A stretch of DNA of 64,000 bases from a virus (lineage: Duplodnaviria > Caudoviricetes). Below are positions 1,863-60,798 of the stretch, one piece after another. The notes beneath the pieces are model-generated. The model was not told where the DNA came from. It did not search any database and saw only the letters and a program-made list of their open reading frames with translations. Position 1 is the stretch's first letter, and every line of letters begins with the position of its first letter. The DNA lies in IMG/VR virus record IMGVR_UViG_3300014203_000001, positions 64,001-128,000 of that record. One strand, given 5' to 3'. A program made the translations under genes and the position numbers.

Positions 1863-4540
1863 TGAAGAATATAGAGAATGATGTTATAACATTTGATAAT
1901 CTGGATGATAGAGAAACAAAAGACTGGCGAGCAATTCGAGGTATTATTCTTCTATACAGTGGATATAAGACAGAAGGAGAATTACGAAGAGATTTCGAGA
2001 ACTTTATAGGAATGCCATTAGGTGACAGAAGAGAAAGTGATTGGAAATCTATAGATCTGTATGGTAGTAACAACACAGATAGATATAATAAGATGCTATC
2101 AGTGTTCTTAAAGAACGATATAGAAAATGATGATTTATATTCTAATTACTATGCTCCTGTGAGAGAATCTGCAGATGGGAATATTAGAATAGGATTCGTT
2201 GGCTATAGTGATTCAGTATTTGATGTGAACAAAGCTATAACTATTATTGAAAAAATATTTGTAAAAATATCTAAAATGTATGATAAAAATAAAGTAGAGA
2301 TTGTATCTGGATATACTAATTTAGGTATACCTAAATTAGTATATGAAAAAGCCAATGAATTAGGTTTTAAAACTGTTGGCATTGCTTGTAAAAAAGCTAA
2401 TGAATATGATGTATTTCCTTGCGATAAAGTAATTATTAAAGGAGAAGAATGGGGAGACGAATCTGAGACTTTCCTTAATTATATAGATGCGATATATAAA
2501 ATAGGAGGAGGTAAACAATCTGAGAGTGAATTTAAAAGCATGAAAAAAATGTCTAAACCAGCTATAGAATATAGATTAGATCGTATAGGAAAGCCAGTAA
2601 AAGAATCTGCAATGGAGAGAGCAGAAGAATGGAATAATAATAGTCTTAATAAGATCATTACTAAAGCTACTTCTTTAAAAGATCTAGAAACCCAATGGGA
2701 AAGATATCAAGCTATTCCTATTCATGATAGAAATAAGCTAGATACCACATCTACTGAGATATTTGGTATTAATAATACTGATCATTATAATTCTCAGAAG
2801 AGAGATTATGTAAAGAAAGATATAGAGAATCCAAAACCAGATGTATTATATACTATTACTAAAGAAGAAGCACTGTTAGAGTATGCTTCTAATACAGATC
2901 CTATTACTTCAGCTTTAACTTGTATTAGATTACAAGAATCTGCATATCCTAACTCTAAGATATTATGCGAGAAAGCAGAGAAAGAGTTAGATGATAAAAT
3001 AAGTATGGATAATATGATGGCAATGTCTATCACTCCATATTTTACCCCATCTCAAATGGAGAAGTTAGGATTATCTGTATTAGATGTAGGCGGTATGTAT
3101 AGTAATGAACCAGACAATGTTATTATAGGAGATATATCTACTAAAGAATGGTTTCTAGAGTACAAGAACCGATTTAATGGATATGACGATACATCCTATA
3201 CTAGTCAATCCGCATGGGTAGAATCTATGAAAAAACTATACTCTGATTATGAGGATATAAAGGAATCTGGAGACATAAATAAGATAAATAGTAGAAAGCA
3301 ATCTATCTTAGATTTAGGATGGAATCCAGAAATAGATTTTAATGAGGAAACTAGAATATTAGCAACCAATCGTATAAATTCCATACTCAACGAAGAATAC
3401 TCTAGATATAGAATTATAGATATAGAACAAAGTGTTTCTCTTATGAATGAAAACTTTGTATATAACGAATCAGAAAATGGTCCTAAGATCAAACCCATCT
3501 TTGTAGTATTCTTTAATACGAAGAACTTATTCAATAAGATCGCTAGGCTTGTAGATAAATCTGTATATAGCCACGTATCTATATCATTTAATCCTTCTTT
3601 AAAAACTCTATATAGTTTTGATGCTAAGCATGGTGGATTCCATACTGAGTATCTAAAAGACTTTATAGAAGAAGGAAATGTAAAAGCTATACAAGTATTT
3701 TGTACTTTTGTAGATGAAGAAAGATATCATAAGATGAAGAATAGAATTTCTAATTTTCATAAGGATAAAGAACAACGAGGATATTCATTCCTTAATCTAA
3801 TAACTATTCCGCTAAAGATAAACTATATAAACCAATCTAAAATGGTTTGTTCTCAGTTTGTAGATAGTATGCTTAAATTAGCAGATCTGGATACTACTCA
3901 TATGGTATCTAGTATAATATCTCCTGGTAATCTGAATAGACATATTAAGAAGTTTAAAGGGGATATGTATAAGATATTTACAGGCGATCCTAAGAATTAC
4001 AATACTAATAAAGTAGGAGAGTTTATAAATAATCTAACCTCTGTTATACAAACTCATACAGAGTCTTCTGTATTAAATTCTTTTTTATCAGTAAATCCTA
4101 TTAGAGAAGAATTTGGTATTCAGTTTACTGATGATGGGGATTTGTTAATCTCTAAAGGAAAAGATATAGACTTCGAAGGTGAATATTCTAGATGTCATAT
4201 GGCATTAATGGAATATGATAAAGCTAAGAATACAGAAGCTATGAAGTACTGTATATGTAAACTATGGTATCTTAATATTATACTAGAAGAAAGAATCAAT
4301 GAGGAGAATTCTAGTAAAGATAAAGATAGAGAAAAACTAAAATCTTATCATAAAGCTAGAGCTAAGATATTGAATGATATTAAGACCTATATGAAAAGAG
4401 TACAGAGATTAGATAAAGATTTTGATATAATTAAAGAATATAACGATAGCCCATTTAATGATAAGAATATCAGAATAAGAAGATCTACTATACTATATGC
4501 TATAGAGCTAGCTAAAAGACTAATAGGAATAAAGAGGTGA
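1862..4540 (+). CDS. multidomain putative head protein with SLOG-like and permuted papain-like (YiiX-type NlpC/P60) domains
   Basis: IGFVGYS..IVSGYTNLGIP..IGGGKQSESE (SLOG); YSHVSI..YSF..MVCSQFV (His before Cys, permuted papain); internal repeat ..YG/FG-x-NNTD-x-YN..KNDIEN/KKDIEN. Confidence 0.7.
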   Translation: MKNIENDVITFDNLDDRETKDWRAIRGIILLYSGYKTEGELRRDFENFIGMPLGDRRESDWKSIDLYGSNNTDRYNKMLSVFLKNDIENDDLYSNYYAPVRESADGNIRIGFVGYSDSVFDVNKAITIIEKIFVKISKMYDKNKVEIVSGYTNLGIPKLVYEKANELGFKTVGIACKKANEYDVFPCDKVIIKGEEWGDESETFLNYIDAIYKIGGGKQSESEFKSMKKMSKPAIEYRLDRIGKPVKESAMERAEEWNNNSLNKIITKATSLKDLETQWERYQAIPIHDRNKLDTTSTEIFGINNTDHYNSQKRDYVKKDIENPKPDVLYTITKEEALLEYASNTDPITSALTCIRLQESAYPNSKILCEKAEKELDDKISMDNMMAMSITPYFTPSQMEKLGLSVLDVGGMYSNEPDNVIIGDISTKEWFLEYKNRFNGYDDTSYTSQSAWVESMKKLYSDYEDIKESGDINKINSRKQSILDLGWNPEIDFNEETRILATNRINSILNEEYSRYRIIDIEQSVSLMNENFVYNESENGPKIKPIFVVFFNTKNLFNKIARLVDKSVYSHVSISFNPSLKTLYSFDAKHGGFHTEYLKDFIEEGNVKAIQVFCTFVDEERYHKMKNRISNFHKDKEQRGYSFLNLITIPLKINYINQSKMVCSQFVDSMLKLADLDTTHMVSSIISPGNLNRHIKKFKGDMYKIFTGDPKNYNTNKVGEFINNLTSVIQTHTESSVLNSFLSVNPIREEFGIQFTDDGDLLISKGKDIDFEGEYSRCHMALMEYDKAKNTEAMKYCICKLWYLNIILEERINEENSSKDKDREKLKSYHKARAKILNDIKTYMKRVQRLDKDFDIIKEYNDSPFNDKNIRIRRSTILYAIELAKRLIGIKR

Positions 4541-7437: not shown

Positions 7438-8479
7438 TAAGACTCCAATAGAATATGTATTATATGGACAGTTTATAAAGTATAATGCATTAAAGAATCT
7501 AGTTGGTTTAGAATTTGCAAACTCAGATGCGGACGAAGTAAATATATTCATAGATCTTAATCAGATGCTTTTACCAGCATTTAGATATCTTAAGATCCAA
7601 GATTATAACGTTATAAGTTCTGCTATTATAAACTACTGTGCTCATATGAGATCTTATTTTAGAACCAGGCATAGAGTAGAATCTAATATCATATTAGTAT
7701 ATACTAGAAATATGTCTGTTAATAATACTAAGTTCTGCTCAGAGTACAATAGCCAATACAGACTTAGAATGCAATCCAACGAGAAGATAATGGAAGCGGT
7801 AGATTATAATATAGATATCTTAAAAGTTCTATGCCCATATTTACCTGATATATATCTTAAACTAGGAACAGTAGAACCATCGGTTATAATTCATGATTTA
7901 GTATTGAATGAGTTTAATAATGGCAATCCAAATGTAGTTATATCAGCATCTCAATACGCTTATCAACTACCAGCTTTTACTCCAAATACTGTAGTGTTTA
8001 GGAAGAAGTTTACTAATAAAGAAGATACTTCTTATTCTTATAATCTCATAAACAGTATCAACGCTTATATTTATGAGACAAAGAATACAGTAGTGAATGA
8101 AGTTCTAAATACAAAAGCTATTAGTTTGGTAATGGTATTGAGTGGATTGCCTAAGAGAAATATCAAAAGTTTATTCGATATTAATAAGACTCTAAAGATT
8201 ATTCAAACTATTCCAGATAGTTGTCTTGGGGATATCGACGCAATGTATGGTTATATTAAATCATACTTAGATACAACTAAGTCTAAAGCTAATCTAGATT
8301 ATAATGAATTCTCTTGTAGATTTAAAGCGATAGACTTACAATATCAATATAGTATGTATGGATATCTACCAGAGTCGAAAGAACAATCTTATTTACAAAG
8401 GTTTAGTGACCCACAGACTGTAAGAGATATCAACGATAGATATTTCAGTACTGTACCTTTGGATCTAGAGAGATTATAA
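7424..8479 (+). CDS. FEN1/T4 RNase H-like (PIN-fold) protein, catalytic motifs degenerate
   Basis: IFIDLN..TVEPSVII..VVISAS..YQL..LSGLPKRNI follow the FEN motif order. Confidence 0.5.
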   Translation: MIYDDKTPIEYVLYGQFIKYNALKNLVGLEFANSDADEVNIFIDLNQMLLPAFRYLKIQDYNVISSAIINYCAHMRSYFRTRHRVESNIILVYTRNMSVNNTKFCSEYNSQYRLRMQSNEKIMEAVDYNIDILKVLCPYLPDIYLKLGTVEPSVIIHDLVLNEFNNGNPNVVISASQYAYQLPAFTPNTVVFRKKFTNKEDTSYSYNLINSINAYIYETKNTVVNEVLNTKAISLVMVLSGLPKRNIKSLFDINKTLKIIQTIPDSCLGDIDAMYGYIKSYLDTTKSKANLDYNEFSCRFKAIDLQYQYSMYGYLPESKEQSYLQRFSDPQTVRDINDRYFSTVPLDLERL

Positions 8480-14374: not shown

Positions 14375-15442
14375 TTATCGGAATTCTACAGAACCGAAGA
14401 TATCTTCAGAACTTCCACCGTATGACTGCCAGCTAGCAGATTCTTTAACAGAAGCACGGATTACTTGTGAAGCGAATCCTTTTGCTTGTGAAATTTCGTT
14501 AGAAATAGCAGTTACTTGAGCACCAAGATATGCTTGCTTTGCGGCTAAACAACCTTTGAATGCACTAACGATAACAGGATATGCAGCTGTTCTCTTACCA
14601 GCATCGCCATCTTTTGGATCTTTAGTTTGAGCAGTAATGCTAGTATTTTGGGCTTTTTCAGTTAACTTGATAATTTCATTAATGTCTTTCTCAAGTTGTT
14701 TATAGCTATCAGATGCATCTTTTGCTGCTTTATCGTTTCCTAATACTTTAGCCAAATATGCAAAATCTACACCATCAACTTCAGATTTTGTACTTTGCCC
14801 ATCTCTAAAATGTTCAAAAAGGGCTTTATTATATTCAGATGCGCTGTAAGATCCGCTAGTTTCTCCAAGACATGCAGAACGAAATCCTTCAATCTTATCA
14901 TCTAGTTTTTCTCTACCATCTATAATTTTTTGAGCATCAGTTGCGCTAAAATCTAACGATTGAGCAGAGACACTAAACATAGCTGCCACTGTATTCGCGA
15001 TGCCTTCCTTATTCATACTGTTTTTGCTATCAAGATGGGTAAATTTATAACCGTGGAATTTCACTTTATCTTTATCAATCTTACTGAACTTCTCAGCCAA
15101 TTCTTTCTTGTATTTATCAAAGAATGATTTACCACCTTTGAATTGAGCATCTACGCGGCTCATGAAGCTATTGAAGATACCTTTCAATTTAGCAAGAATA
15201 CTCATGAAGAATTTCTTCACTTTTTCCCAGAAAGATCTAATAGCACCTTCGTTTAATGCACATTCACCTGATTCGCGAAGTGCTTTGTTTTCATGTAGAC
15301 CAATCGTAGTCATAAGAGCATTGAAATTACTTTCAGACTCTGCTACTACAGCAAGTACTGCTTCGTGGTAGTTACTAATATAGCAAGGTACAGCTTGAAC
15401 TTCAACTGATGTACCTAATGTGCTTTCACCAAAAAAACTCAT
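14375..15442 (-). CDS. internal head protein paralogue 2
   Basis: MSFFGE start; LNE|GAIRSFWEKVKKFF. Confidence 0.7.
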   Translation of the reverse strand: MSFFGESTLGTSVEVQAVPCYISNYHEAVLAVVAESESNFNALMTTIGLHENKALRESGECALNEGAIRSFWEKVKKFFMSILAKLKGIFNSFMSRVDAQFKGGKSFFDKYKKELAEKFSKIDKDKVKFHGYKFTHLDSKNSMNKEGIANTVAAMFSVSAQSLDFSATDAQKIIDGREKLDDKIEGFRSACLGETSGSYSASEYNKALFEHFRDGQSTKSEVDGVDFAYLAKVLGNDKAAKDASDSYKQLEKDINEIIKLTEKAQNTSITAQTKDPKDGDAGKRTAAYPVIVSAFKGCLAAKQAYLGAQVTAISNEISQAKGFASQVIRASVKESASWQSYGGSSEDIFGSVEFR

Positions 15443-15457
15443 TATCTTTTCCTCCTC

Positions 15458-16570
15458 TTAATATACTGCTTCTAGAGCAGATAATACTTCATATTCAGCA
15501 GCTTCTTGTTCTACTTCAATCAATGAAGTATCTTCATGTTTCTTAGGATTGAATGCTACAATAGCAGCAGCAATTCTACGAGACTGAGCCACAGCAAATT
15601 TAATTTCAGTTAAAACAGCACTATTAGCAACACCAAGAGCTTCTTGCATAGCCTGAGCCTGCTTTTGTAAACGCGCAGCCAATTTCTGATGATTTTCAGC
15701 TTTACCACTAAATTTACCACCATCTGTTTTATCAGTATCTTTACCACTGAATTTATTACTGTAACCACCATGGGTTACATCTTTTGTACTGTCTACAGCA
15801 TAATCCGTAGCTTTACCTGCAAATTTTTCAATTTGTTTAAGGTAATTATTAAGACCTTTTTCTTGGTCTTCACCTAATTTCTTAAGTGTAGAAACTGGAT
15901 CTTTTTTGCCAGAAATATATTGAACATATTCGGCAATATTACTAGAGCTGACTTCGTGAGTAGCTTCTTCTGAATCGAAGCATTCATCATGGAAATCTTT
16001 ACGGAAAGATCCTTTACTAGCATTATTAACTTTAGGCACTACGATATCACTCAAATATTCATCCACTAAATCACTCTGAGATTTGTCGTCTGATAAATTT
16101 CCGTCTGGGCTGGCACCGTCTACATTTACTTTAATATTAGCAAAGCCAGATGTAGGTTTTGAATATTTCACTTTCAAACCATCAAGATCTTTTCCCGAGA
16201 AGATTTCTTTCTTATATTTATCAAAGAAAGCTCTACCGTCTTTACCCATCCAAGCTTCAAATTTAGCAATGAAGCCTTTAAAGATACCTTTAATTTTAGC
16301 GATAAGTTTTCTAACAAATGCTTTAACTTTTTCCCAGAAGCTAGATAAAGCACCTTCTTGCATTGCACTAACCTCTGATTCGCTAGCACCTTCTTGAACC
16401 ATTCTATGTTCTTGACGGTCAGCCATTAGAGATGCGGAAAACATATCCATATCATTTTGGAAACCTTCTACCATAAGCATTTGAGCACCAATTGTGCCGC
16501 TGTATCCTTCAGCAGCTTCTACACAAATATTGCCAATGCTGCCTATTTCGTTTTCACCGAAAAAACTCAT
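15458..16570 (-). CDS. internal head protein paralogue 1
   Basis: AGGAGG RBS gives an MSFFGE start at 16570; MQE|GALSSFWEKVKAFV. Confidence 0.7.
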   Translation of the reverse strand: MSFFGENEIGSIGNICVEAAEGYSGTIGAQMLMVEGFQNDMDMFSASLMADRQEHRMVQEGASESEVSAMQEGALSSFWEKVKAFVRKLIAKIKGIFKGFIAKFEAWMGKDGRAFFDKYKKEIFSGKDLDGLKVKYSKPTSGFANIKVNVDGASPDGNLSDDKSQSDLVDEYLSDIVVPKVNNASKGSFRKDFHDECFDSEEATHEVSSSNIAEYVQYISGKKDPVSTLKKLGEDQEKGLNNYLKQIEKFAGKATDYAVDSTKDVTHGGYSNKFSGKDTDKTDGGKFSGKAENHQKLAARLQKQAQAMQEALGVANSAVLTEIKFAVAQSRRIAAAIVAFNPKKHEDTSLIEVEQEAAEYEVLSALEAVY

Positions 16571-44737: not shown

Positions 44738-47700
44738 ATGACAGTATATCTTGAAGATATAAAGCCGATGATATTAAATAAAACACAGTTCTTCCTACCT
44801 ATTAACGAGGAAGATAAGAAGAAGAATAGTGCTATATTTCTATTAACTCCTAATATAGAAAGCTCTATTAATACAATGAAACACCCACTAACTTTGAATA
44901 GAAGGCTATTTGAATCTTATTATATAGAGAAGGATATCTCTTTTATTATTAATGAAGCTCACCAATTAGTAAGAAGTGATGTAGTTCCTTTATACGAATC
45001 AATGGTAGAGCAATATAAGAATAGTAGAATTTATATAAATTCCGTAAATGAACAAGCTATCCTTTCAGAAGCAGCAGAGGATATTATTGCAGAGGATTAT
45101 ACTTTACTTAGAGAAGATTATCTAGTAACAGAAGACTTTATTCATACTAATTATGAGCTTCAAGAAAGTAAGTTCTTCTTTGGAGATGCAGTTCAATCTA
45201 TATTAGAAGAAGATAGTCCTAAATCTGGTAATTATTCTGCTATGATGCGAAAGCTTCTATATTCGGAAAGAATAAAGAATCAGAAAGAATGTATTCTAAT
45301 CCATGATAAAGTAAAAGCAGATCTTGCCTTTATTAGATATACTTATATCAACTATGCTTTATATAAACAGAGAAACTTATTCATAGATTGGTCTTATTAT
45401 ACTCAGGCTTTCTTTAAGAACAATGTATATAAGTTAGATAGAGCGGTAGATCTATATTTTGAGTTTCTTAATAAATTCTTATCTGATACTAGATTAGACG
45501 ATAATGGATACAAAATCAAAACTGTATTCATTCCAGTATTAGATTGGGTTAAAACAGATATTGTTGCTTGGGATTATACAAAAGATATCAATCCTATCTC
45601 TATGATATATAGACTTCTGAAACGTAAGTCTACTATACTAACTGACAAATGGAGTGGATATACATTTGTATTCTTATCAGATAAAGCATACTTCAAGCTA
45701 AACTTCAGTGAATTCAATGAAACTAAACTTCCTGTATTTGTTAGTCTTATTAGCAAACTTAGTACAGGACAGGTTCAGGATGCTGAATTGGAAACTAATG
45801 ATTCATCTAAAGCTATTGTTCATAAAGTAATAGATAAGATGGAAGATGGTGGTATAGAAATCACTAATCTTACTGGAGGAACAACTAAGATATCTCCAGA
45901 GGAAATGAAAAAGAAGTTTGATAATGGAGATACTATTATTTCTAAAGATACGTCTAAAGAAGATGCCGAAGAAGAAAAGAAAGCTCAGTTAGTAAACCAA
46001 ATTAAAACAGTAGCTGATAAATCTTCTGATGAGAATAATGCCATGGAGAATCTAGATTCTGATATGGATAATGAATGGACTAAGCAACTTATTGTCGATT
46101 TACAATCAGAAGATGGTCCTAATATAAATGCTAGTCGAAAAGCTAGAATACTTAGTCTTAGAAGTGATTTTTCTAATAAGAAGATTAATGGTACTAAAGT
46201 AGAAGATCTTATTAAGAAGAATAAAGAGATGACCGAGTTAGAAGTGGATACTATTCCTATAGACAATATCAATGAAGAATGGCAAAATGTACAGTTTAGT
46301 ACCTTTAGTAAAAACTACGATCTAGACTCAGATATATATGCTATATTAGCAGATATGAGTTCTAAGTCAGAACCTATCATGATAATATCAGTAGATAAGA
46401 AAGATACATCTACATCGGAAGATTATATTGAGACTTGGGATATAAAATGTGAAGATGCCAATGGTAAACGTTTTACTATTAAACTGGATATTCCTAAGTT
46501 TATAAACAATCGGTATATGAAACTAAGAGGAAATCTAAAAGTAGTTAGTGGGCAATTAGTTCTTATTCCTATTATCAAGACAGATGAAGATACAGCTCAG
46601 ATAGTATCCTGTTCATATAACAAGATATTCATCAAAAGAATAAATCCAAGCGGTGGTTCTAAAACTACTAGAGCTGTTAGTAAACTAGTAAAAGCTTTAT
46701 CTAAATATGAAGGAACTAAGATAAAAACTTTTGAGGGGGATAATAGCTTTGTATCTAGTAAGTATGAACTCCCTATAGAATACAAAGATCTATCTGGATT
46801 GTATAGCAGAATAGAATTGTCAGATGGAAGTTACTTCTCTTTTAATATGGATGATATGAGAAAGATTCCTTTACAGCATCCTAAAGAAGATATGAATAGA
46901 ATACCTCTTTATGTAAATAAAGATGGTAAAGCTGAATGTTGTACGGATGAGGCAGCCAATTTCATTATGCTTAAACTTATTGCGGCAGATCCAGCTTTTG
47001 ATGATATATTGAGCAATATCAAACCAGATAAGAGATTAAGCTACACATCTGCTAGTATTCTTAATACCGATATTCCCGTTATAGTTGTTATGGCATATAG
47101 TGAAGGATTGCAAACAGCTATGACTAAAGGTGGAGTTAAATTTAATTTTACTGATAAACGTCCCAATGCCAGCGAATTTTTTATTAAGTTCTCAGATGGA
47201 TATATAGTCTATCAAGATAATCCCAGTGTTTCTCTTCTAATGAGTGGATTAGCTCATTGTGATACTGCTAGCTATTCTATTAAAGATATTAATAAAAAAG
47301 AAATGTGGTTAGATTTCTTAGATAACTTCGGTGGTAGAATAAAAGCTGATGGTTTAGATAACTTCTATGATCTCATGTTTGATCCCACTACGAAAGAGGT
47401 TTGTGAATTATATCATCTACCTACTGATTATATTGAAGCGTTAGGTTATGCTAGTGATCTTCTAACTGATACTAAGTATAATAAACATGTAGATATTTCT
47501 GGTAATAGGATTAGAACTAATGAGATAATTGCAGGATATGTGTATAAAGCTATATCTAAAGGGTATGGAGAATACAAAACTCAATTAAAGAGAAATAAGA
47601 AAGACGCTTCTCTTACAATAAAACAATCTGCAGTTATAGATAATATACTAATGGACCCTACGTCTACAGATTTGTCTATTCTAAACGCATTACTAGAAGC

Positions 47701-49192
47701 TGAAGCAAACAACGAAATGTCGTTTAAAGGATTATCTGGTATGAACTCAGATAGGAGTTACAGCTTAGATAAAAGAACATATGACGATTCCATGATGGGT
47801 GTTATTGCAGCCTCTACTGGATTTGCTGCTAATGTTGGTATTACCAGACAGGCTAGTATAAATAGTAGCGTAAAAGGAACTAGAGGTTTAATTGTTTCTC
47901 CTAAAGATAAGGATATAAATACATTAAATACTCTATGTGTAACAGAAGCTTTAACTCCATTTGGTACTACTCACGATGATCCTATTAGAACTGCCATGGG
48001 ATTTATTCAGACTTCTAAACATCAAATGCGGGTCAAGAAATCATCTCCTAATCTTATAACAACAGGAATGGATGAAGCTCTACCTTATGTAACCTCTGAT
48101 ATATTCTCTTATAAATTTAGAGGTAAGAAAGGAAAGGTATTAGAAGTTACAGACGATTATATTATATATGAAGATTCTGATACTAAAGAAAGAGGATATG
48201 TAGATATAAGAGATAATGTCATGAAGAACTCAGATGGCGGTTTCTATGTAACAGTTAAGCTAGATCCATGTGTTAAGAAGGGTGATACATTGAAGTATCA
48301 TGATATACTTGCATATGACAAATCATCATACTCTAAAGCCATTGGAACGGATAAATCTGAGAAGACTATCTCATACAATATTGGTACTATGGCTAAGATA
48401 GGAATACTCACAACAGATGAAGCATTTGAAGATAGTGCTATATTTGATACATATCTATCCGATGCTCTTAGTTCTACTTATTGTGTGAAAAAAGAAAGAG
48501 CTTTATCTAAAGATACAAATGTATACAATGTTCTTAAGAAAGGAGATCCTATAGAAGAGGGAGATCCTCTAATAATATTCCAGAATGCATTTGATGAGAA
48601 AGATGCTAATGCTTTACTTAAATCTATAACAGATGATGATGTAGAAGCTATATCTGACTTGGGACGTATCCATGTTAGATCTAAAATGACAGGATGGGTA
48701 CAAGATGTAAAGATCTATCGTACATGTGAACTAGATGATCTATCTCCATCTTTAAAGAAACTTGTAGTTGAATATGAAAAAGGTATTCAAAAACAGAAGA
48801 AGTTATTTAAAGATAATAAGATGGAAGGAATGAATCATATACTAGAGCCAGACTATAAACTTCCTTCTACTGGTAAACTAAAAGGTGTAGATAACGGAGT
48901 CCTCATAGAATTCTATATCAAATGCGAGGATAAGTTTGGTATAGGAGATAAGCTAGTATATAACAATGCAATCAAAGGTGTAGGAAAAGATATAATAGCT
49001 GAGGGAGAAGAACCGTATACGGACTTCCGTAAAAATGAACCAGTAAATGCTTTACTAGCAGTAGCATCTGTAAATGCTCGTATGGCTTCTTCTATATTTC
49101 TTACAGGAGCATTGAATAAGTTCTTAGTAGAATTAGATAGAGCTTGTAAGGAAAAGCTAGGAATTCCATGGAAAAATTTAAAGGATATGTAA
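44738..49192 (+). CDS. rpoB: phage multisubunit RNA polymerase beta-like subunit, probably virion RNAP
   Basis: LTPFGTTHDDPIRTAMG, AFEDSAIF, IGDKL..IKGV and VNALL..SVNARM are beta motifs; long N-terminal extension with INE/YES/LQE sites and a late promoter fit a phiKZ/AR9-type vRNAP. Confidence 0.88.
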   Translation: MTVYLEDIKPMILNKTQFFLPINEEDKKKNSAIFLLTPNIESSINTMKHPLTLNRRLFESYYIEKDISFIINEAHQLVRSDVVPLYESMVEQYKNSRIYINSVNEQAILSEAAEDIIAEDYTLLREDYLVTEDFIHTNYELQESKFFFGDAVQSILEEDSPKSGNYSAMMRKLLYSERIKNQKECILIHDKVKADLAFIRYTYINYALYKQRNLFIDWSYYTQAFFKNNVYKLDRAVDLYFEFLNKFLSDTRLDDNGYKIKTVFIPVLDWVKTDIVAWDYTKDINPISMIYRLLKRKSTILTDKWSGYTFVFLSDKAYFKLNFSEFNETKLPVFVSLISKLSTGQVQDAELETNDSSKAIVHKVIDKMEDGGIEITNLTGGTTKISPEEMKKKFDNGDTIISKDTSKEDAEEEKKAQLVNQIKTVADKSSDENNAMENLDSDMDNEWTKQLIVDLQSEDGPNINASRKARILSLRSDFSNKKINGTKVEDLIKKNKEMTELEVDTIPIDNINEEWQNVQFSTFSKNYDLDSDIYAILADMSSKSEPIMIISVDKKDTSTSEDYIETWDIKCEDANGKRFTIKLDIPKFINNRYMKLRGNLKVVSGQLVLIPIIKTDEDTAQIVSCSYNKIFIKRINPSGGSKTTRAVSKLVKALSKYEGTKIKTFEGDNSFVSSKYELPIEYKDLSGLYSRIELSDGSYFSFNMDDMRKIPLQHPKEDMNRIPLYVNKDGKAECCTDEAANFIMLKLIAADPAFDDILSNIKPDKRLSYTSASILNTDIPVIVVMAYSEGLQTAMTKGGVKFNFTDKRPNASEFFIKFSDGYIVYQDNPSVSLLMSGLAHCDTASYSIKDINKKEMWLDFLDNFGGRIKADGLDNFYDLMFDPTTKEVCELYHLPTDYIEALGYASDLLTDTKYNKHVDISGNRIRTNEIIAGYVYKAISKGYGEYKTQLKRNKKDASLTIKQSAVIDNILMDPTSTDLSILNALLEAEANNEMSFKGLSGMNSDRSYSLDKRTYDDSMMGVIAASTGFAANVGITRQASINSSVKGTRGLIVSPKDKDINTLNTLCVTEALTPFGTTHDDPIRTAMGFIQTSKHQMRVKKSSPNLITTGMDEALPYVTSDIFSYKFRGKKGKVLEVTDDYIIYEDSDTKERGYVDIRDNVMKNSDGGFYVTVKLDPCVKKGDTLKYHDILAYDKSSYSKAIGTDKSEKTISYNIGTMAKIGILTTDEAFEDSAIFDTYLSDALSSTYCVKKERALSKDTNVYNVLKKGDPIEEGDPLIIFQNAFDEKDANALLKSITDDDVEAISDLGRIHVRSKMTGWVQDVKIYRTCELDDLSPSLKKLVVEYEKGIQKQKKLFKDNKMEGMNHILEPDYKLPSTGKLKGVDNGVLIEFYIKCEDKFGIGDKLVYNNAIKGVGKDIIAEGEEPYTDFRKNEPVNALLAVASVNARMASSIFLTGALNKFLVELDRACKEKLGIPWKNLKDM

Positions 49193-49993: not shown

Positions 49994-51334
49994 TTAAATG
50001 ATTTTGATCTCCGAAACATCGTCAGATTTAAACATTAATACCTTTTCTTTATCTCCATCTTCGATTGTTACTTCAACGATAGATCCGAATTTGATACTAT
50101 GTTTCGCATCTTGAGAGATGTCGAATAATTTAGTAGTTCCATCTTTGAAATATACTTGAACTTTCTTATTTAAATAAGCAGATTCTGTAACATGATTCTT
50201 TTCTGTATCTTCGCCAAAGAAATAGGCATTGCGTGTTGTATTAAATACTGGGCGTTTGGCGTTTCGCCAAGCTAATGCTTTTTCTACCAGATATGAACCA
50301 CATCCAATATCATCCTCACCTTTTTCAATCTTAGTATTTTCTTTATTAGACGAATTATTATCCATAAAGTCTACACTTGGAGGTAATGGTATAGTATCTG
50401 TATCGCCAGATTTATTATAATGCGATAGACCTATACTCGGAGTCAAATACTCAGTTGATTTGAGTTTATAAGAATTAAAATCTGATGGATTTTGAAGTTT
50501 AATTAATACATCTGTATTGCCACTGGCATCTACAGCGCAATCTTCCTCCTGTTCGATCTTATCGGAAGTGACTAGAGGATTTTCTAATTTAACTTCAGTG
50601 AATGCAGCAGAAGGTTGCTTCACTATAGAGTTCTTGATATTTTGAGCTACTACTTTTCCATTTATCTGTTTATCATTCAATACATCATTGATTTTCTCAA
50701 GATAAACATCTTTATCTTTAAGAGTCAAAGCACTGATATAGTCATGGACTTTGATCAGGTTCTCGATTTTCCGTTCCATATTATGGATCGAAGTGATAAA
50801 CTCTAGCACTTTAGAGAAAGAATTAAGCTTTTCTCTAGTTAGCGTAAATAGCTTCAATTGCTCAGCGGAACCTAGAATTGCGCCGATGCACTCGCTTGAA
50901 AAGTGTAGTTCATTGTCAAGAATAACATGATCATGTTTTCTAGTTCTGTTGAATACAAATCTTTCTGGGAATACCTGATCGTATTCGCAGTCAACAAAAT
51001 ACCTATTAGCATTCTGACGGAACTTTTCTTTCTTCTTGTAGTCAGCCACTTTATAAATAGCTTTCTTGGTATAGAGAAATACATATCTGATTTTTCCTCT
51101 AATATTAATACCACTATCTGCTAATTCCTTAGCCCCATCATATATCTTGACATAATCCTCAGGATTTAGATAATTGTAGGTTCTCATATAGGTTAGGGTA
51201 CCAGTCACACTCTGTTTAACTAGAACGCTTACTTTAGACTCTTCTGTTAACCCCAAAAGAATTTTAGCTACACTCATAGCTGGGTACATTTTCTTTCCTG
51301 CTACCATTACATATAGTTTGTTTTCGTTTGTCAT
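49994..51334 (-). CDS. early protein, possible tandem Bro-N-like DNA-binding modules
   Basis: VAGKKMYPAMSVAKILLG and ILDNELHFSSECIGAILG resemble the Bro-N start; early promoter upstream. Confidence 0.45.
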   Translation of the reverse strand: MTNENKLYVMVAGKKMYPAMSVAKILLGLTEESKVSVLVKQSVTGTLTYMRTYNYLNPEDYVKIYDGAKELADSGINIRGKIRYVFLYTKKAIYKVADYKKKEKFRQNANRYFVDCEYDQVFPERFVFNRTRKHDHVILDNELHFSSECIGAILGSAEQLKLFTLTREKLNSFSKVLEFITSIHNMERKIENLIKVHDYISALTLKDKDVYLEKINDVLNDKQINGKVVAQNIKNSIVKQPSAAFTEVKLENPLVTSDKIEQEEDCAVDASGNTDVLIKLQNPSDFNSYKLKSTEYLTPSIGLSHYNKSGDTDTIPLPPSVDFMDNNSSNKENTKIEKGEDDIGCGSYLVEKALAWRNAKRPVFNTTRNAYFFGEDTEKNHVTESAYLNKKVQVYFKDGTTKLFDISQDAKHSIKFGSIVEVTIEDGDKEKVLMFKSDDVSEIKII

Positions 51335-51375
51335 AATAAAATCTCTCCCCTCTTCGATACAATATTTTATTATTG

Positions 51376-51394
51376 CTCACATATATAATATATA
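51376..51394 (-). promoter_or_regulatory. putative early promoter
   Basis: TATATATTAT-ATATG-TGAG. Confidence 0.7.
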
Positions 51395-51418
51395 ACTATA
51401 TTGTGTAAGATTTACAAA

Positions 51419-51446
51419 AAAGGAATAGCTATATAGCTATTCCTTT
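51419..51446. terminator. 28-bp perfect palindrome
   Basis: aaaggaatagctatatagctattccttt. Confidence 0.7.
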
Positions 51447-51653
51447 ATCATACTTATGCTTATCATAGTATCTAATATTTAACCTATCTCTACGATACCA
51501 ATTGGTTTTGTCCTCAATTAACTTGTATATCTGTCTATGTCTGCTATTACCAGGTTTGTGCATATAGCATACTTCTCCGCATCTTGGATAAAGATTATAC
51601 TCGTCAAAATCGTTTATTCCATATAGTTCTTTTCTACTTGGCAATGTTATCAT
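51429..51653 (-). CDS. small basic hypothetical protein
   Basis: GGGGAGG RBS before ATG 51653. Confidence 0.65.
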   Translation of the reverse strand: MITLPSRKELYGINDFDEYNLYPRCGEVCYMHKPGNSRHRQIYKLIEDKTNWYRRDRLNIRYYDKHKYDKGIAI

Positions 51654-51696
51654 ATCTTCACCTCCCCTAATCAATAGTAATTATTTGATAAAAATA

Positions 51697-51732
51697 AATA
51701 TAGAGGTATACCAATTGGTATACCTCTATATT
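51697..51732. terminator. 36-bp perfect palindrome
   Basis: aatatagaggtataccaattggtatacctctatatt. Confidence 0.75.
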
Positions 51733-51739
51733 AATAGGA

Positions 51740-51925
51740 TTATAATAAGAATAATGCTACTAAGGTTGCATATCCTACTAATAGGTATGCTATTCCTTTT
51801 AATACAATAACTGAATCTTCTTTAGTCCAGTTTTCTTTGATATACTTGGCTCCGTAAAATACACCTAAAAGTGATATTACTATTACCTCTACAATATCTG
51901 ATACTAATGCTGATACTATTCCCAT
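51740..51925 (-). CDS. small two-TM membrane protein (early)
   Basis: Two hydrophobic segments, AGGAG RBS, early promoter. Confidence 0.75.
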   Translation of the reverse strand: MGIVSALVSDIVEVIVISLLGVFYGAKYIKENWTKEDSVIVLKGIAYLLVGYATLVALFLL

Positions 51926-51952
51926 AGTAAAACAACTCCTTTTATATTATAC

Positions 51953-51971
51953 TTCATCTATATAATATATA
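51953..51971 (-). promoter_or_regulatory. putative early promoter
   Basis: TATATATTAT-ATAGA-TGAA. Confidence 0.7.
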
Positions 51972-51980
51972 ACCTAAATT

Positions 51981-52504
51981 TATAACTAATGCATATTTAC
52001 AATACTGTAGATATATAAATAATAAGTTATATAATACAGTAAGCATACCAGATACTATTATAGTATCTGGTATTATATTAATTCTTCTATTCTTTATTAA
52101 TCATGTCTATTTATCTTAATTTTGATCCCCCTTACGAATATGTAGTACTTTTAGAAATTAATTTGATAATTTTATACGTATCTTAACTTTCTCTATTATT
52201 AGTATACTAATAATAGAGAAAACAGTAAAATAGAGAGAAGACTATAGTCTTCTCTCTAATCATATTCATCCTCTATTTCTCCTACCAAAATCCCCTCTAT
52301 TGATATGTAATTGTTTTAGTTTTTAATTTGTATTTCTCAGTAACATAGATAATTTCCTATATAAACAAGTATCTAATATAGGAAAAGACAGTATAATTAC
52401 AGATAATCAATGATTATCTGTTCTATCTCTAATTAATCATGTCTATTCTCTTATTTCAGATCCCCCTTATGAATATGTCATGCTTTTAGAAATTAATTTG
52501 ATAA
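51981..52504 (-). repeat. array of three ~170-bp structured non-coding units (candidate small RNAs or replication origin)
   Basis: Each unit on the plus strand: hairpin A - ACAGTA - hairpin B - TAATCAT - ATCCCC - ATATGT - TTTTAG - TAATTTG; units 1 and 3 share a ~73-bp near-identical block. Confidence 0.75.
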
Positions 52505-52517
52505 AAATATCAATAGT

Positions 52518-52536
52518 TATATATTATAAGTATGAA
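52518..52536 (+). promoter_or_regulatory. putative early promoter
   Basis: TATATATTAT-AAGTA-TGAA. Confidence 0.7.
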
Positions 52537-52568
52537 TAGTAATAAAATATATAAAGGTGGTATAACTA

Positions 52569-52907
52569 ATGGAAAAGATAGTAGTTACAGTGGAGAATAT
52601 TAAGGAGGTATTTGATAAGATTAAGTCGTTACAATCTCCTAAAAAAGACATTGAATTAGAATATGGAATAGTAGATATTGCTAATGTATTTACAACTACT
52701 GAATGTAGTTGTAAGTTAAAAGAGTACAAGGTTGGAATATATAATTATATCAAATACAACCAATCAAATGTTAAAATCGAGATAAACTTCGACCTAGGAA
52801 CTAATATAATATTTCCAGGAATGGTTATAGTATTTGAAAAGGATTCATTCTACATATATTCAGATATAAAACTTCCAGTTATATCTCAAAGGTTTACTAT
52901 TAAATAA
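52569..52907 (+). CDS. hypothetical early protein
   Basis: 112 aa, AGGTGG RBS. Confidence 0.8.
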   Translation: MEKIVVTVENIKEVFDKIKSLQSPKKDIELEYGIVDIANVFTTTECSCKLKEYKVGIYNYIKYNQSNVKIEINFDLGTNIIFPGMVIVFEKDSFYIYSDIKLPVISQRFTIK

Positions 52908-52917
52908 AAGACACAAT

Positions 52918-52951
52918 ATATGCAGTAGTACTAAATTGTACTACTGCATAT
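52918..52951. terminator. stem-loop
   Basis: atatgcagtagtac-taaatt-gtactactgcatat. Confidence 0.75.
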
Positions 52952-53121
52952 ATCAGTGTAAAAAGGATGTAATAGTATATCAAAATGTTATTTTACTAGA
53001 TCGCCCAAATCTAATAAAATAATCAGAAGTAATCAAAAGGGAAGGTATTGTGTGCGAAGCAATACCTTCTATATATGGGGATAATAAGAGGAGAGAGTTA
53101 GCTGCTTGCATAACTAACTTT
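52918..53121 (-). ncRNA. candidate ~200-nt structured sRNA with C/U-rich linkers
   Basis: GACA-TATATG-TA at 53121-53132 (minus strand), three hairpins, then a terminator; no RBS-led ORF. Confidence 0.45.
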
Positions 53122-53155
53122 ACATATATGTCTATCAGTTATTATTTTTTATAAA

Positions 53156-53174
53156 TATATATTATATAGGTGAG
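53156..53174 (+). promoter_or_regulatory. putative early promoter
   Basis: TATATATTAT-ATAGG-TGAG. Confidence 0.7.
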
Positions 53175-53209
53175 CAATAAATATATTGCATCATAAGGAG
53201 GAATTAATT

Positions 53210-53704
53210 ATGGATATGATTATTTTAACTACAGAAAACACGAAGAGTGTTAAAGAGAAATTAATAAAGTTTTTAGGTAATAGTGACTATTGCACTTATA
53301 TGAAAGGAATGAGAGGACCAGCTAAATTAAATAGAAAAGAAGCTTTTTGTGGATGTGATTTTAATAGAGTTGCTATTTTGAAAGGTTTTAAAATATGTGG
53401 CAATATGGAACTTTGTGATGCTATAGATGATAAATTTCAGTATACTACAGCTGCTACTGGAATCGATATATGTTTATCGCATGGGTTAATCAATATACCA
53501 ATCAATACAACGCTAGTTATTTTTGATGATGTGTTATTTATATACTATGATAAGACATTAGGGGAACAATGCGCTAGAATCAGTTTACGTAATGACGAAG
53601 AAGTTAATGCAGATAAGGATGAATTTGGTAAGTATATTATAGAAGAGATCAAAGAAATTACTGTTAAAACAAACCCGATGCGTAAACTTAGAACTGACAA
53701 ATAA
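53210..53704 (+). CDS. hypothetical early protein
   Basis: AGGAGG RBS before ATG 53210. Confidence 0.8.
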   Translation: MDMIILTTENTKSVKEKLIKFLGNSDYCTYMKGMRGPAKLNRKEAFCGCDFNRVAILKGFKICGNMELCDAIDDKFQYTTAATGIDICLSHGLINIPINTTLVIFDDVLFIYYDKTLGEQCARISLRNDEEVNADKDEFGKYIIEEIKEITVKTNPMRKLRTDK

Positions 53705-60102: not shown

Positions 60103-60798
60103 ATGTTAGCATTTTTCAATGCGGTGAATACATACACCGACGCATCAATAGTAAAAGATCCAGAGGGTAATGGGTTTATAACCTGTGCTGGATTCGTAAC
60201 TGTATTTCATGGGGAAATCATAGATAGTGGCACGCAAATAGTTAGTGAAGCCACCAATAACTACGGGGAAATTATGGCGATTTATATGGGTATTCAAAGT
60301 TTGTTAAAGTTTAAAGATTATGACACATTTCTTAATCTATTCTCAGATTCAAGAATCTCTGTATTGGGATTGAGAGAATGGATATATTCATGGGTGAAGA
60401 ATATGCACCCCGAAACTTATATCTTAGTCAATTCTAGTGGAACTGAGGTTATGAACCAAGAGGTGTTTTGTAACATTGTAAATTACATCGTACAGAATAA
60501 TACACACTTATCTCTGTATCATCAGAGAGGGCATCAAGATCCAACAAATGTCAAAGATATGGAGGTTGTACGGGAATCGTTCCTATCTCAGAACAATGTC
60601 GCTCTGCCAGACGATATTATCAGAGAGATTTGCTACTATAATAACATGGTAGATGAAATGACAAGAAATATTTTATTAGAATCGCTCGAGTCGTCAATAT
60701 TCAATAAAGCTAAATACCGCAGACCAAAGATAATAGCTGCAAGAAGAGTATTAAACTGGAATATGTTAGGAAAATATAAGGAATTAATAGGAGGATAA
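60103..60798 (+). CDS. rnhA: ribonuclease HI
   Basis: YTDAS, TNNYGEIMAI, FSDS, W..W, HQRGH, NNMVD give the DEDD set. Confidence 0.9.
   Translation: MLAFFNAVNTYTDASIVKDPEGNGFITCAGFVTVFHGEIIDSGTQIVSEATNNYGEIMAIYMGIQSLLKFKDYDTFLNLFSDSRISVLGLREWIYSWVKNMHPETYILVNSSGTEVMNQEVFCNIVNYIVQNNTHLSLYHQRGHQDPTNVKDMEVVRESFLSQNNVALPDDIIREICYYNNMVDEMTRNILLESLESSIFNKAKYRRPKIIAARRVLNWNMLGKYKELIGG

Follow-up and report, generated by a model that had tools for sequence, protein, structure and literature searches.

What could three consecutive copies of a gene-start signal be for when no gene follows them? The question is raised by an array of three tandem direct-repeat units at positions 51975-52507 of a 64,000-bp stretch of phage DNA (the window), which comprises bases 64,001-128,000 of a 245,713-bp IMG/VR record (IMGVR_UViG_3300014203_000001) with direct terminal repeats and ~32% GC. 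The original prediction, made from this DNA alone, proposed either a family of small RNAs (sRNAs) acting as decoy, antitoxin mimic or guide, or a replication origin primed by transcripts. The analysis described here leads us to prefer, tentatively and with slightly less than even confidence, a different reading: the units would be late regulatory cassettes without genes, similar to the promoter-early stem-loop (PeSL) cassettes of T4-type phages, producing short leftward leader RNAs and partly feeding the operon of a membrane protein of 61 amino acids (aa).

Anatomy of the array

The three units described in the original prediction were confirmed; they are spaced by 165 and 170 bp and are 58-75% identical to one another, their best-kept parts being a promoter box, a G-run and an upstream box. 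They lie in a 643-bp gap (51926-52568), the second-longest non-coding gap of the genome. The non-coding character of the array was borne out: the gap contains only three open reading frames (ORFs) of 20-30 codons, which are unconserved and differ between the units in place, strand and frame, and for this reason the possibility that the units encode small peptides was rejected.

The sequence motifs were found exactly where the original prediction had put them (positions in units 1, 2 and 3): ACAGTA at 52036, 52222 and 52388, TAATCAT at 52098, 52257 and 52434, ATCCCC at 52125, 52290 and 52460, ATATGT at 52138, 52303 and 52473, TTTTAG at 52149, 52314 and 52484, and TAATTTG at 52159, 52324 and 52494. 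The ACAGTA/TACTGT box is specific to the units, and the pairs ATCCCC..ATATGT, ATATGT..TTTTAG and TTTTAG..TAATTTG occur in the 245,713-bp genome at the three sites of the array only, on one strand. The near-identical block of ~73 bp attributed to units 1 and 3 had to be replaced by two shorter stretches, 59 nucleotides (nt) at 86% and 35 nt at 80% identity. The features of the array are as follows (SD, Shine-Dalgarno sequence; G001 is one of two related phages described below).

51740-51925, minus: gene of the 61-aa protein, downstream of the array; two hydrophobic helices; conserved in both relatives
51942-51973, minus: class E (early-type) promoter in front of the 61-aa gene; also the left arm of a 32-nt inverted repeat bracketing the array
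51975-52172, minus: unit 1 (198 bp)
52003-52041, minus: unit 1, hairpin A, imperfect; outer stem TACTGTA/TACAGTA, including the ACAGTA box at 52036-52041
52045-52073, minus: unit 1, hairpin B; 14-bp perfect stem; outer stem common to unit 3 and G001
52074-52133, minus: unit 1, predicted leader, beginning with the SD-like AAGGGGGAT at 52133; 73% purine
52133-52144, minus: unit 1, late-type promoter box TACATATTCGTA; predicted start 52133
52149-52168, minus: unit 1, upstream box (CAAATTAA..CTAAAA on the minus strand), conserved; also at 52314-52333 and 52484-52503
52173-52337, minus: unit 2 (165 bp), the most divergent copy
52188-52221, minus: unit 2, hairpin A
52222-52227, minus: unit 2, ACAGTA box
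52231-52258, minus: unit 2, hairpin B with U-rich tail
52290-52298, minus: unit 2, G-run
52298-52309, minus: unit 2, promoter
52338-52507, minus: unit 3 (170 bp)
52353-52385, minus: unit 3, hairpin A
52388-52393, minus: unit 3, ACAGTA box
52399-52421, minus: unit 3, hairpin B
52460-52468, minus: unit 3, G-run
52468-52479, minus: unit 3, promoter
52511-52547, plus: class E (early-type) promoter in front of a 112-aa gene that points rightward; also the right arm of the inverted repeat around the array

Five of the hairpins described in the original prediction were confirmed, namely the perfect palindromes B1, A2, B2 and B3 (numbered by unit) and hairpin A3, which has a 10-bp stem; hairpin A of unit 1 was found at 52003-52041, not at 51981-52031. 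As computed, the folds are stable. The claim that pairing is maintained by selection on structure held in part. Hairpin B of units 1 and 3 and of G001 has the outer stem CAGATA/TATCTG in common, and three double changes that keep the pairs set unit 1 apart from unit 3 and G001; the comparison is one of three sequences in a genome where such DNA palindromes are generic. There are 107-133 perfect hairpins genome-wide; 107 have a stem of at least 11 bp, and 63 of these have a loop of 0-1 nt and lie mostly at gene ends. Because loop-less palindromes are symmetric at the DNA level, they are no pointer to an RNA family.

Two short sequences at unit 1 deserve mention. An identical 11-mer, TATAACTAATG, is present at the left edge of the unit (51981-51991) and at the start codon of the 112-aa gene (52561-52571), probably by chance. 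The TACTGT..ACAGTA pair was considered as a LexA box and rejected, because its half-sites are 25 nt apart rather than 8 nt as in LexA sites.

Promoters and ribosome sites of the phage

The phage, which among the listed sequencing runs is contained in one landfill metagenome DNA run and in no RNA run, encodes a 1484-aa beta subunit of a multisubunit RNA polymerase (RNAP) at 44738-49192 of the window (phrog_3148, E 1e-125). The closest cultured kin of this subunit are found in the Bacillus phages PBS1 and Goe21 (~29% identity), Yersinia phage phiR1-37 and the Staphylococcus S6 group (~26-32% identity overall). On account of this kinship we regard the phage as a distant AR9/PBS1-like jumbo phage, and the labels early and late are used here for promoters by analogy with AR9 and phiKZ-like phages. 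The gene calls are crude ORF picks, from which all upstream regions were taken.

Two promoter classes were recognized. Class E consists of a long AT-rich box (TTATATATTATATA..TGAG), present upstream of dozens of genes, and fits the virion-polymerase early promoters of jumbo phages as described in PMC7598289. The original prediction had placed the array between divergent early promoters; both indeed belong to this abundant class, facing outward at the two edges of the array and leaving it uncovered. In dozens of cases the class E promoter is part of a larger arrangement before a gene, together with a terminator hairpin, a T-run, a conserved leader hairpin (GAGCAAT..ATTGC) and an SD.

The second class, class L (AACATA-N3-R-TA), is intergenic in 15 of 16 cases and fits the late consensus of AR9, A-11ACA-N6-U with A/G at +1 (PMC7598289). 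With the first position relaxed (NACATA-N3-R-TA) there are 27 intergenic matches in the genome, 17 of which sit 15-56 nt before a co-directional start codon. Eight matches are orphans, and half of these are the three units and a site at 53132, all on the minus strand. The promoter boxes of the units, TACATATTCGTA, TACATATCAATA and GACATATTCATA, predict starts at 52133, 52298 and 52468, and all three contain ACA-N6-TA; the minus-strand reading ACATAT-N3-TA, followed directly by the G-run, which the original prediction had given as the late-promoter pattern, fits the phage's own late consensus, which is of AR9 type. A general upstream CTAAA element of late promoters was looked for and not found.

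The G-run has a simple counterpart in the rest of the genome. The most enriched 6-mer upstream of genes is AAGGGG (22 of 159 upstream regions), and several genes carry TAAGGGGGAT followed by 6-9 nt and ATG. This arrangement is a normal ribosome site in the phage and the G-run of the units is a common SD variant; a late promoter that abuts the SD is a common layout. In the unit leaders there is no start codon at a usable distance, and no reading frame is common to the units.

The module formed by promoter and SD also occurs in front of genes. A hidden Markov model (HMM) of the unit core detected, with nhmmer, one further site in the genome (E 0.014, or 8.6e-4 with a five-sequence model), located before a gene for a superfamily 2 (SF2, ResIII) helicase (genome positions 14392-15972, minus strand; module at 15,960-16,018). 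In a comparison of 267 gene starts, the units most clearly resembled the region upstream of this helicase (score 43, z 7.2). In second place came that of a 74-aa gene located two genes downstream of the array, which has a degenerate module at 51654-51739 of the window. These two matches place the promoter-SD module of the units in a small family that drives real genes. The helicase orthologue of G001 also has a late-type promoter abutting its SD, of different sequence. The idea that the units are a clade-conserved mimic of the helicase initiation region was rejected: the leader alone fits many gene starts equally, and the helicase is placed 63rd in G001.

Relatives and a hotspot of gene content

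The original prediction had named, among the conditions that would refute it, a lack of homologous units in related phages; a counterpart was found at the syntenic site in both relatives. The clade sample consists of three genomes, namely the phage itself, G001 (183,919 bp; contig L074 is the same DNA) and G002 (48,636 bp), and the RNAP beta subunits of the latter two are 76-77% identical to that of the phage. In the collections searched, the 446-aa and 241-aa flanking proteins led to no relatives beyond G001 and G002, and searches based on the RNAP and on a conserved loop of the neighbouring element (see below) returned the same two contigs plus chance matches. Blastn of the locus against cultured phages gave no match, a scan of IMG/VR with a pattern of three hexamer motifs gave 52 single, unrelated matches, and in the landfill DNA run the contigs of the phage were identical and of low depth.

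The order RNAP beta, 140-aa gene, 61-aa gene, variable stretch, 241-aa gene, DUF5662 gene, thymidylate kinase is conserved in the three phages. The variable stretch contains the three units and the 112- and 164-aa genes in the phage, a 188-aa gene and one unit in G001, and a single gene-less unit in G002. At the syntenic site, the other phages lack counterparts of the 446-, 74-, 112- and 164-aa genes of the phage and likewise of G001's 188-aa gene; none of these genes belongs to a Pfam or PHROG family. The locus (window 49994-53704 in comparison with the relatives' loci L069 and L070) is a hotspot of gene content. This, the identity of the G-run with a common SD variant, and the fact that the promoter-SD module drives real genes are the points that the original prediction did not contain.

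Each relative has its unit on the same strand, with one late promoter (AACAATAATRTA), then GGAG..GGG, then a leader of 77-78% purine. The G002 unit continues directly, over 158 nt that lack a strong hairpin, into the early promoter and the gene of the 61-aa protein. The G001 unit has behind it a hairpin with the outer stem CAGATA/TATCTG, as in hairpin B of units 1 and 3, and here an inserted gene on the opposite strand separates the cassette, which was kept, from a 63-aa gene. Unit 1 matches the G001 unit at 83% over 41 nt (52059-52099; blastn E 3.5e-4 for the whole record, 2e-5 locally), and the unit cores of G001 and G002 are 84% identical over 99 nt. An HMM built on the units missed the relatives' element, and the reverse search was negative too.

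As a side observation, the match to RNAP beta extends over ~5.15-5.3 kb in the relatives (L059 3001-8148; L060 3001-8295) versus 4.46 kb in the phage, which suggests an insertion (intron, intein or homing endonuclease) like that annotated for the PBS1 gene.

A putative structured element next to the array

The fourth orphan late-type promoter near the array, GACATATATGTA, is located at 53121-53132 on the minus strand. Downstream of it there is a 5' hairpin with the invariant loop UAUGCAAGC, then a CGCAC(G/A)CA block. Promoter, hairpin and block are conserved in the three phages (window 52905-53132; L069 ~3560-3825; L070 ~7925-8200), and the changes in the stem keep the pairs. A terminator-like hairpin comes next on the minus strand, at 52914-52955. 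The whole has the appearance of a late non-coding element of ~215 nt, structured and conserved, with no match in Rfam.

Proposed late cassettes without genes

Taking these observations together, we propose that the array represents three tandem expression cassettes whose gene was lost or never present. Each minus-strand cassette would consist of an upstream box, an AR9-type late promoter of the non-virion RNA polymerase (nvRNAP), an SD-like G-run at the start, a purine-rich leader of ~60 nt and two hairpins. Late in infection the phage polymerase would initiate at 52468, 52298 and 52133 and produce leader-like RNAs of ~70-130 nt, ending or pausing at the hairpins. A fraction reading through would provide late transcription of the 61-aa membrane-protein operon and the genes behind it, which otherwise would have an early-type promoter only.

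The behaviour assumed for the hairpins can be compared with that of other hairpins in the genome. A hairpin lies in the gap between 67 co-directional gene pairs, and in 32 of these no promoter motif is present between the hairpin and the next start, which means that read-through must be common. In the same 32 pairs the perfect hairpin is found 12-50 nt before the next start codon; since no promoter motif follows before that codon, such hairpins are intra-operonic and may be leaky terminators or RNA stabilisers. A hairpin followed by CTGT was considered as a general terminator signal of the phage and rejected (4 of 74 versus a background of 3%).

The closest known parallel is found in T4-type phages, whose PeSL cassettes were described by Arbiol et al. 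(2010, PMC2839356). PeSLs are repeated composites, conserved over ~100 bp, with a strong promoter, a stem-loop and an SD, in which the stem-loops serve as attenuators, and they are located in hyperplastic regions beside ORFans that differ between related phages; the array likewise lies in a gene-content hotspot. In contrast to PeSLs, which have a sigma-70-type early promoter directly before a gene, the units have a late-type promoter of the phage multisubunit polymerase and no ORF after them, and they are three tandem gene-less copies, each with two hairpins downstream of the leader. In formal terms, the class E cassettes of the phage are a nearer analogue of PeSLs than the array. The existence of a paralogous promoter-SD family and the location in a region of variable gene content suggest that the cassette may behave as a PeSL-like linker for gene gain and loss, and most likely the array marks a hotspot of gene shuffling.

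With regard to the promoter itself, late promoters of the AR9 nvRNAP (PMC7598289, PMC9209446) are characterized by ACA-N6-T with A/G at +1 and by enrichment just upstream of genes; the units have the same motif, a related RNAP beta is encoded, and the motif is enriched just upstream of genes here as well. The late consensus of the phage, AACATA-N3-R-TA, is longer than that of AR9. Recognition of the AR9 late promoters needs uracil in the DNA; the likeness seen here is one of sequence motif.

Several observations weigh against the proposed cassettes. At position -11 the units carry T, T and G, in contrast to the A of the AR9 consensus; A is also found in most strong sites of the phage, and other likely promoters in it have T, G or C. 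Excision of the PeSL type leaves a single chimeric cassette, not three gene-less cassettes in a row. The predicted starts are 208-543 nt from the start codon of the 61-aa gene, versus 15-56 nt for ordinary late promoters. Part of the leader of unit 1 is 83% identical over 41 nt to G001 despite flanking proteins that are ~35-50% identical, the G001-G002 core is conserved above the adjacent coding DNA (~70%), and the G001 cassette has been retained though uncoupled from the 63-aa gene. Such conservation exceeds the expectation for neutral DNA and could mean that the transcribed part has a function of its own. The gene-less tandem, the long distance and the conserved leader keep a dedicated small-RNA function alive, but none of the tests made supported it.

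Alternative explanations

The most serious of the alternatives, which we still consider unlikely, is a dedicated multicopy sRNA family. Stable late RNAs of ~70-130 nt would then arise from every unit. Their conserved 5' part, a mimic of a ribosome binding site that lacks a start codon and lies in a purine-rich single strand, would act in trans and could titrate 30S subunits or a regulator binding SD/GGA sequences, or pair with pyrimidine-rich host targets. A version restricted to a clade-conserved late sRNA, whose SD-mimic 5' end soaks up 30S subunits or the SD/GGA-binding regulator and whose hairpins only stabilise it, appears likewise improbable enough to be called unlikely. The promoter, the G-run and the purine-rich leader are present in all five copies of the three phages, and the conservation just described (unit 1 and G001 despite far-diverged flanking genes, the G001-G002 core relative to coding DNA, the uncoupled G001 unit together with its homologous hairpin B) would be expected of such an RNA, as would the three double changes in hairpin B. 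Furthermore, the orphan late promoter at 53132 would drive a structured non-coding element conserved in three phages, which makes late non-coding RNAs plausible at this locus.

Giant phages are reported to make RNAs of this kind: 201phi2-1 and phiKZ produce short transcripts terminated just after the start (PMC11512511), and the 6S RNA of lambda PR'-tR' and StxS are comparable small RNAs (PMC7547250). In these systems a promoter followed by a hairpin within at most 250 nt yields a small RNA with a regulatory role or as a mere side product, while the genes further on are expressed by read-through. They were seen experimentally and are single-copy; the array is triplicated, its RNAs are predicted from sequence, and it has no known antiterminator.

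Other observations do not fit an sRNA family. No Rfam match reached the gathering score in the window or in both relatives, the best sub-threshold matches being at chance level, and a tRNA scan of the same sequences gave nothing. Paired with the initiation regions of 267 phage genes, the leaders give best duplex energies no different from those of shuffled leaders, their likeness is to initiation regions in general and not to any particular one, and a terminator-like U tail is present on the minus strand only at hairpin B of unit 2. The failure of the HMMs of the units and the relatives' element to detect each other argues in the same direction, and high conservation of regulatory cassettes would also result from recombination between them, as is reported for PeSLs (PMC2839356). 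The decoy, antitoxin mimic or guide of the original prediction thus found neither a family nor a target above shuffles.

A type III toxin-antitoxin RNA does not fit either. ToxI-like RNAs consist of near-identical tandem repeats of ~36 nt beside an endoribonuclease toxin gene; the units are 165-198 bp long and 58-75% alike, and no toxin-like neighbour was found. If true, a ribosome-site mimic RNA would be a new device of phage take-over.

It is improbable that the units are inert scars. Such scars would be remnants of gene starts that were deleted or duplicated in a recombination hotspot; they would not be transcribed and would be kept only because they are young. The units do resemble gene starts from which the gene is missing, their alignment with the helicase region extends a few codons into the coding part, the locus varies between the relatives, and conservation is weakly sampled with three clade genomes only. 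Two observations speak against inert scars: the promoter box, the G-run and the upstream box are best kept amid a divergence given by 58-75% identity, and a counterpart occupies this site in phages with flanking proteins of only ~35-50% identity.

A transcription-activated replication origin, in which purine-rich transcripts from the tandem promoters, held as R-loops on the pyrimidine-rich template in the most easily melted DNA of the genome, would prime the leading strand after trimming by RNase H, appears at least as improbable. The array is the most AT-rich 600 bp of the genome (22.2% GC versus a mean of 32.1%) and its densest cluster of perfect hairpins (4 per 600 bp versus 0.33 expected), and it has three repeats of 165-198 bp with promoters. 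The first 60 nt predicted to be transcribed are 70-73% purine, and 70% is reached by 1.4% of the 60-nt windows of the genome. The locus is situated where predominantly leftward genes give way to predominantly rightward ones and where the cumulative GC skew is flat at its minimum (108.7-120 kb). The RNase H gene, as the original prediction had noted, is nearby (60103-60798, 7.6 kb away).

There are working precedents for such an origin: the primary origin of T7 has tandem phage promoters plus an AT-rich stretch, and RNA II of ColE1 primes through an R-loop. The array is similar to them in its tandem phage-polymerase promoters, its purine-rich predicted transcripts, its extreme AT content and the RNase H encoded by the phage. 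It is unlike them in that its promoters are of the late class, the skew signal does not go beyond gene orientation, and there is no initiator or primase nearby. The skew minimum itself is 7.6 kb from the array, at genome position 108,672 (window 44,672), where the genes diverge in front of RNAP beta, and it follows gene orientation, because the same gene junction is involved in both relatives; skew corrected for gene strand fits on the right side only.

The locus has no short iterons and no initiator gene nearby, its neighbours being devoid of recognisable domains. The 241-aa neighbour was considered as an initiator or RNA partner and rejected (no Pfam or PHROG match, no usable Atlas match, AlphaFold model unusable at a pLDDT of 46). 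The G002 counterpart is not AT-extreme, since 20% of the 600-bp windows of its contig have equal or lower GC. Of the origin originally proposed, only the AT-richness and the repeats were left standing. If true, a mapped origin would be, to our knowledge, the first for the AR9-like group. The analysis demonstrates no replication origin, and no new regulatory RNA either.

Finally, plus-strand anti-SD RNAs, made of hairpin A, ACAGUA, hairpin B and a pyrimidine-rich tail (AUCCCCCUU) that would repress some of the phage genes by pairing with their AAGGGGGAU ribosome sites, can be considered very improbable: complementarity to the SD variant of more than 20 genes, folds with lower z-scores and a T-rich tail at hairpin B of unit 1 speak for them, but no early-type or strict late-type promoter is directed rightward into the array, sigma-70-like matches are at the level of shuffled sequence, and the conserved promoter box, placed as it is with respect to the G-run, is meaningful on the minus strand only.

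Implications

If the late cassettes that we favour fire, AR9-like jumbo phages would build accessory regions from modules of late promoter, SD and hairpin, comparable to the early PeSLs of T4-type phages, and such modules could persist gene-less and yield short RNAs. For an uncultured phage clade the analysis provides a promoter consensus and three predicted start sites. Since a conserved element that looks structured and late adjoins the array, the locus would be a good place to look for non-coding RNA function in these phages.

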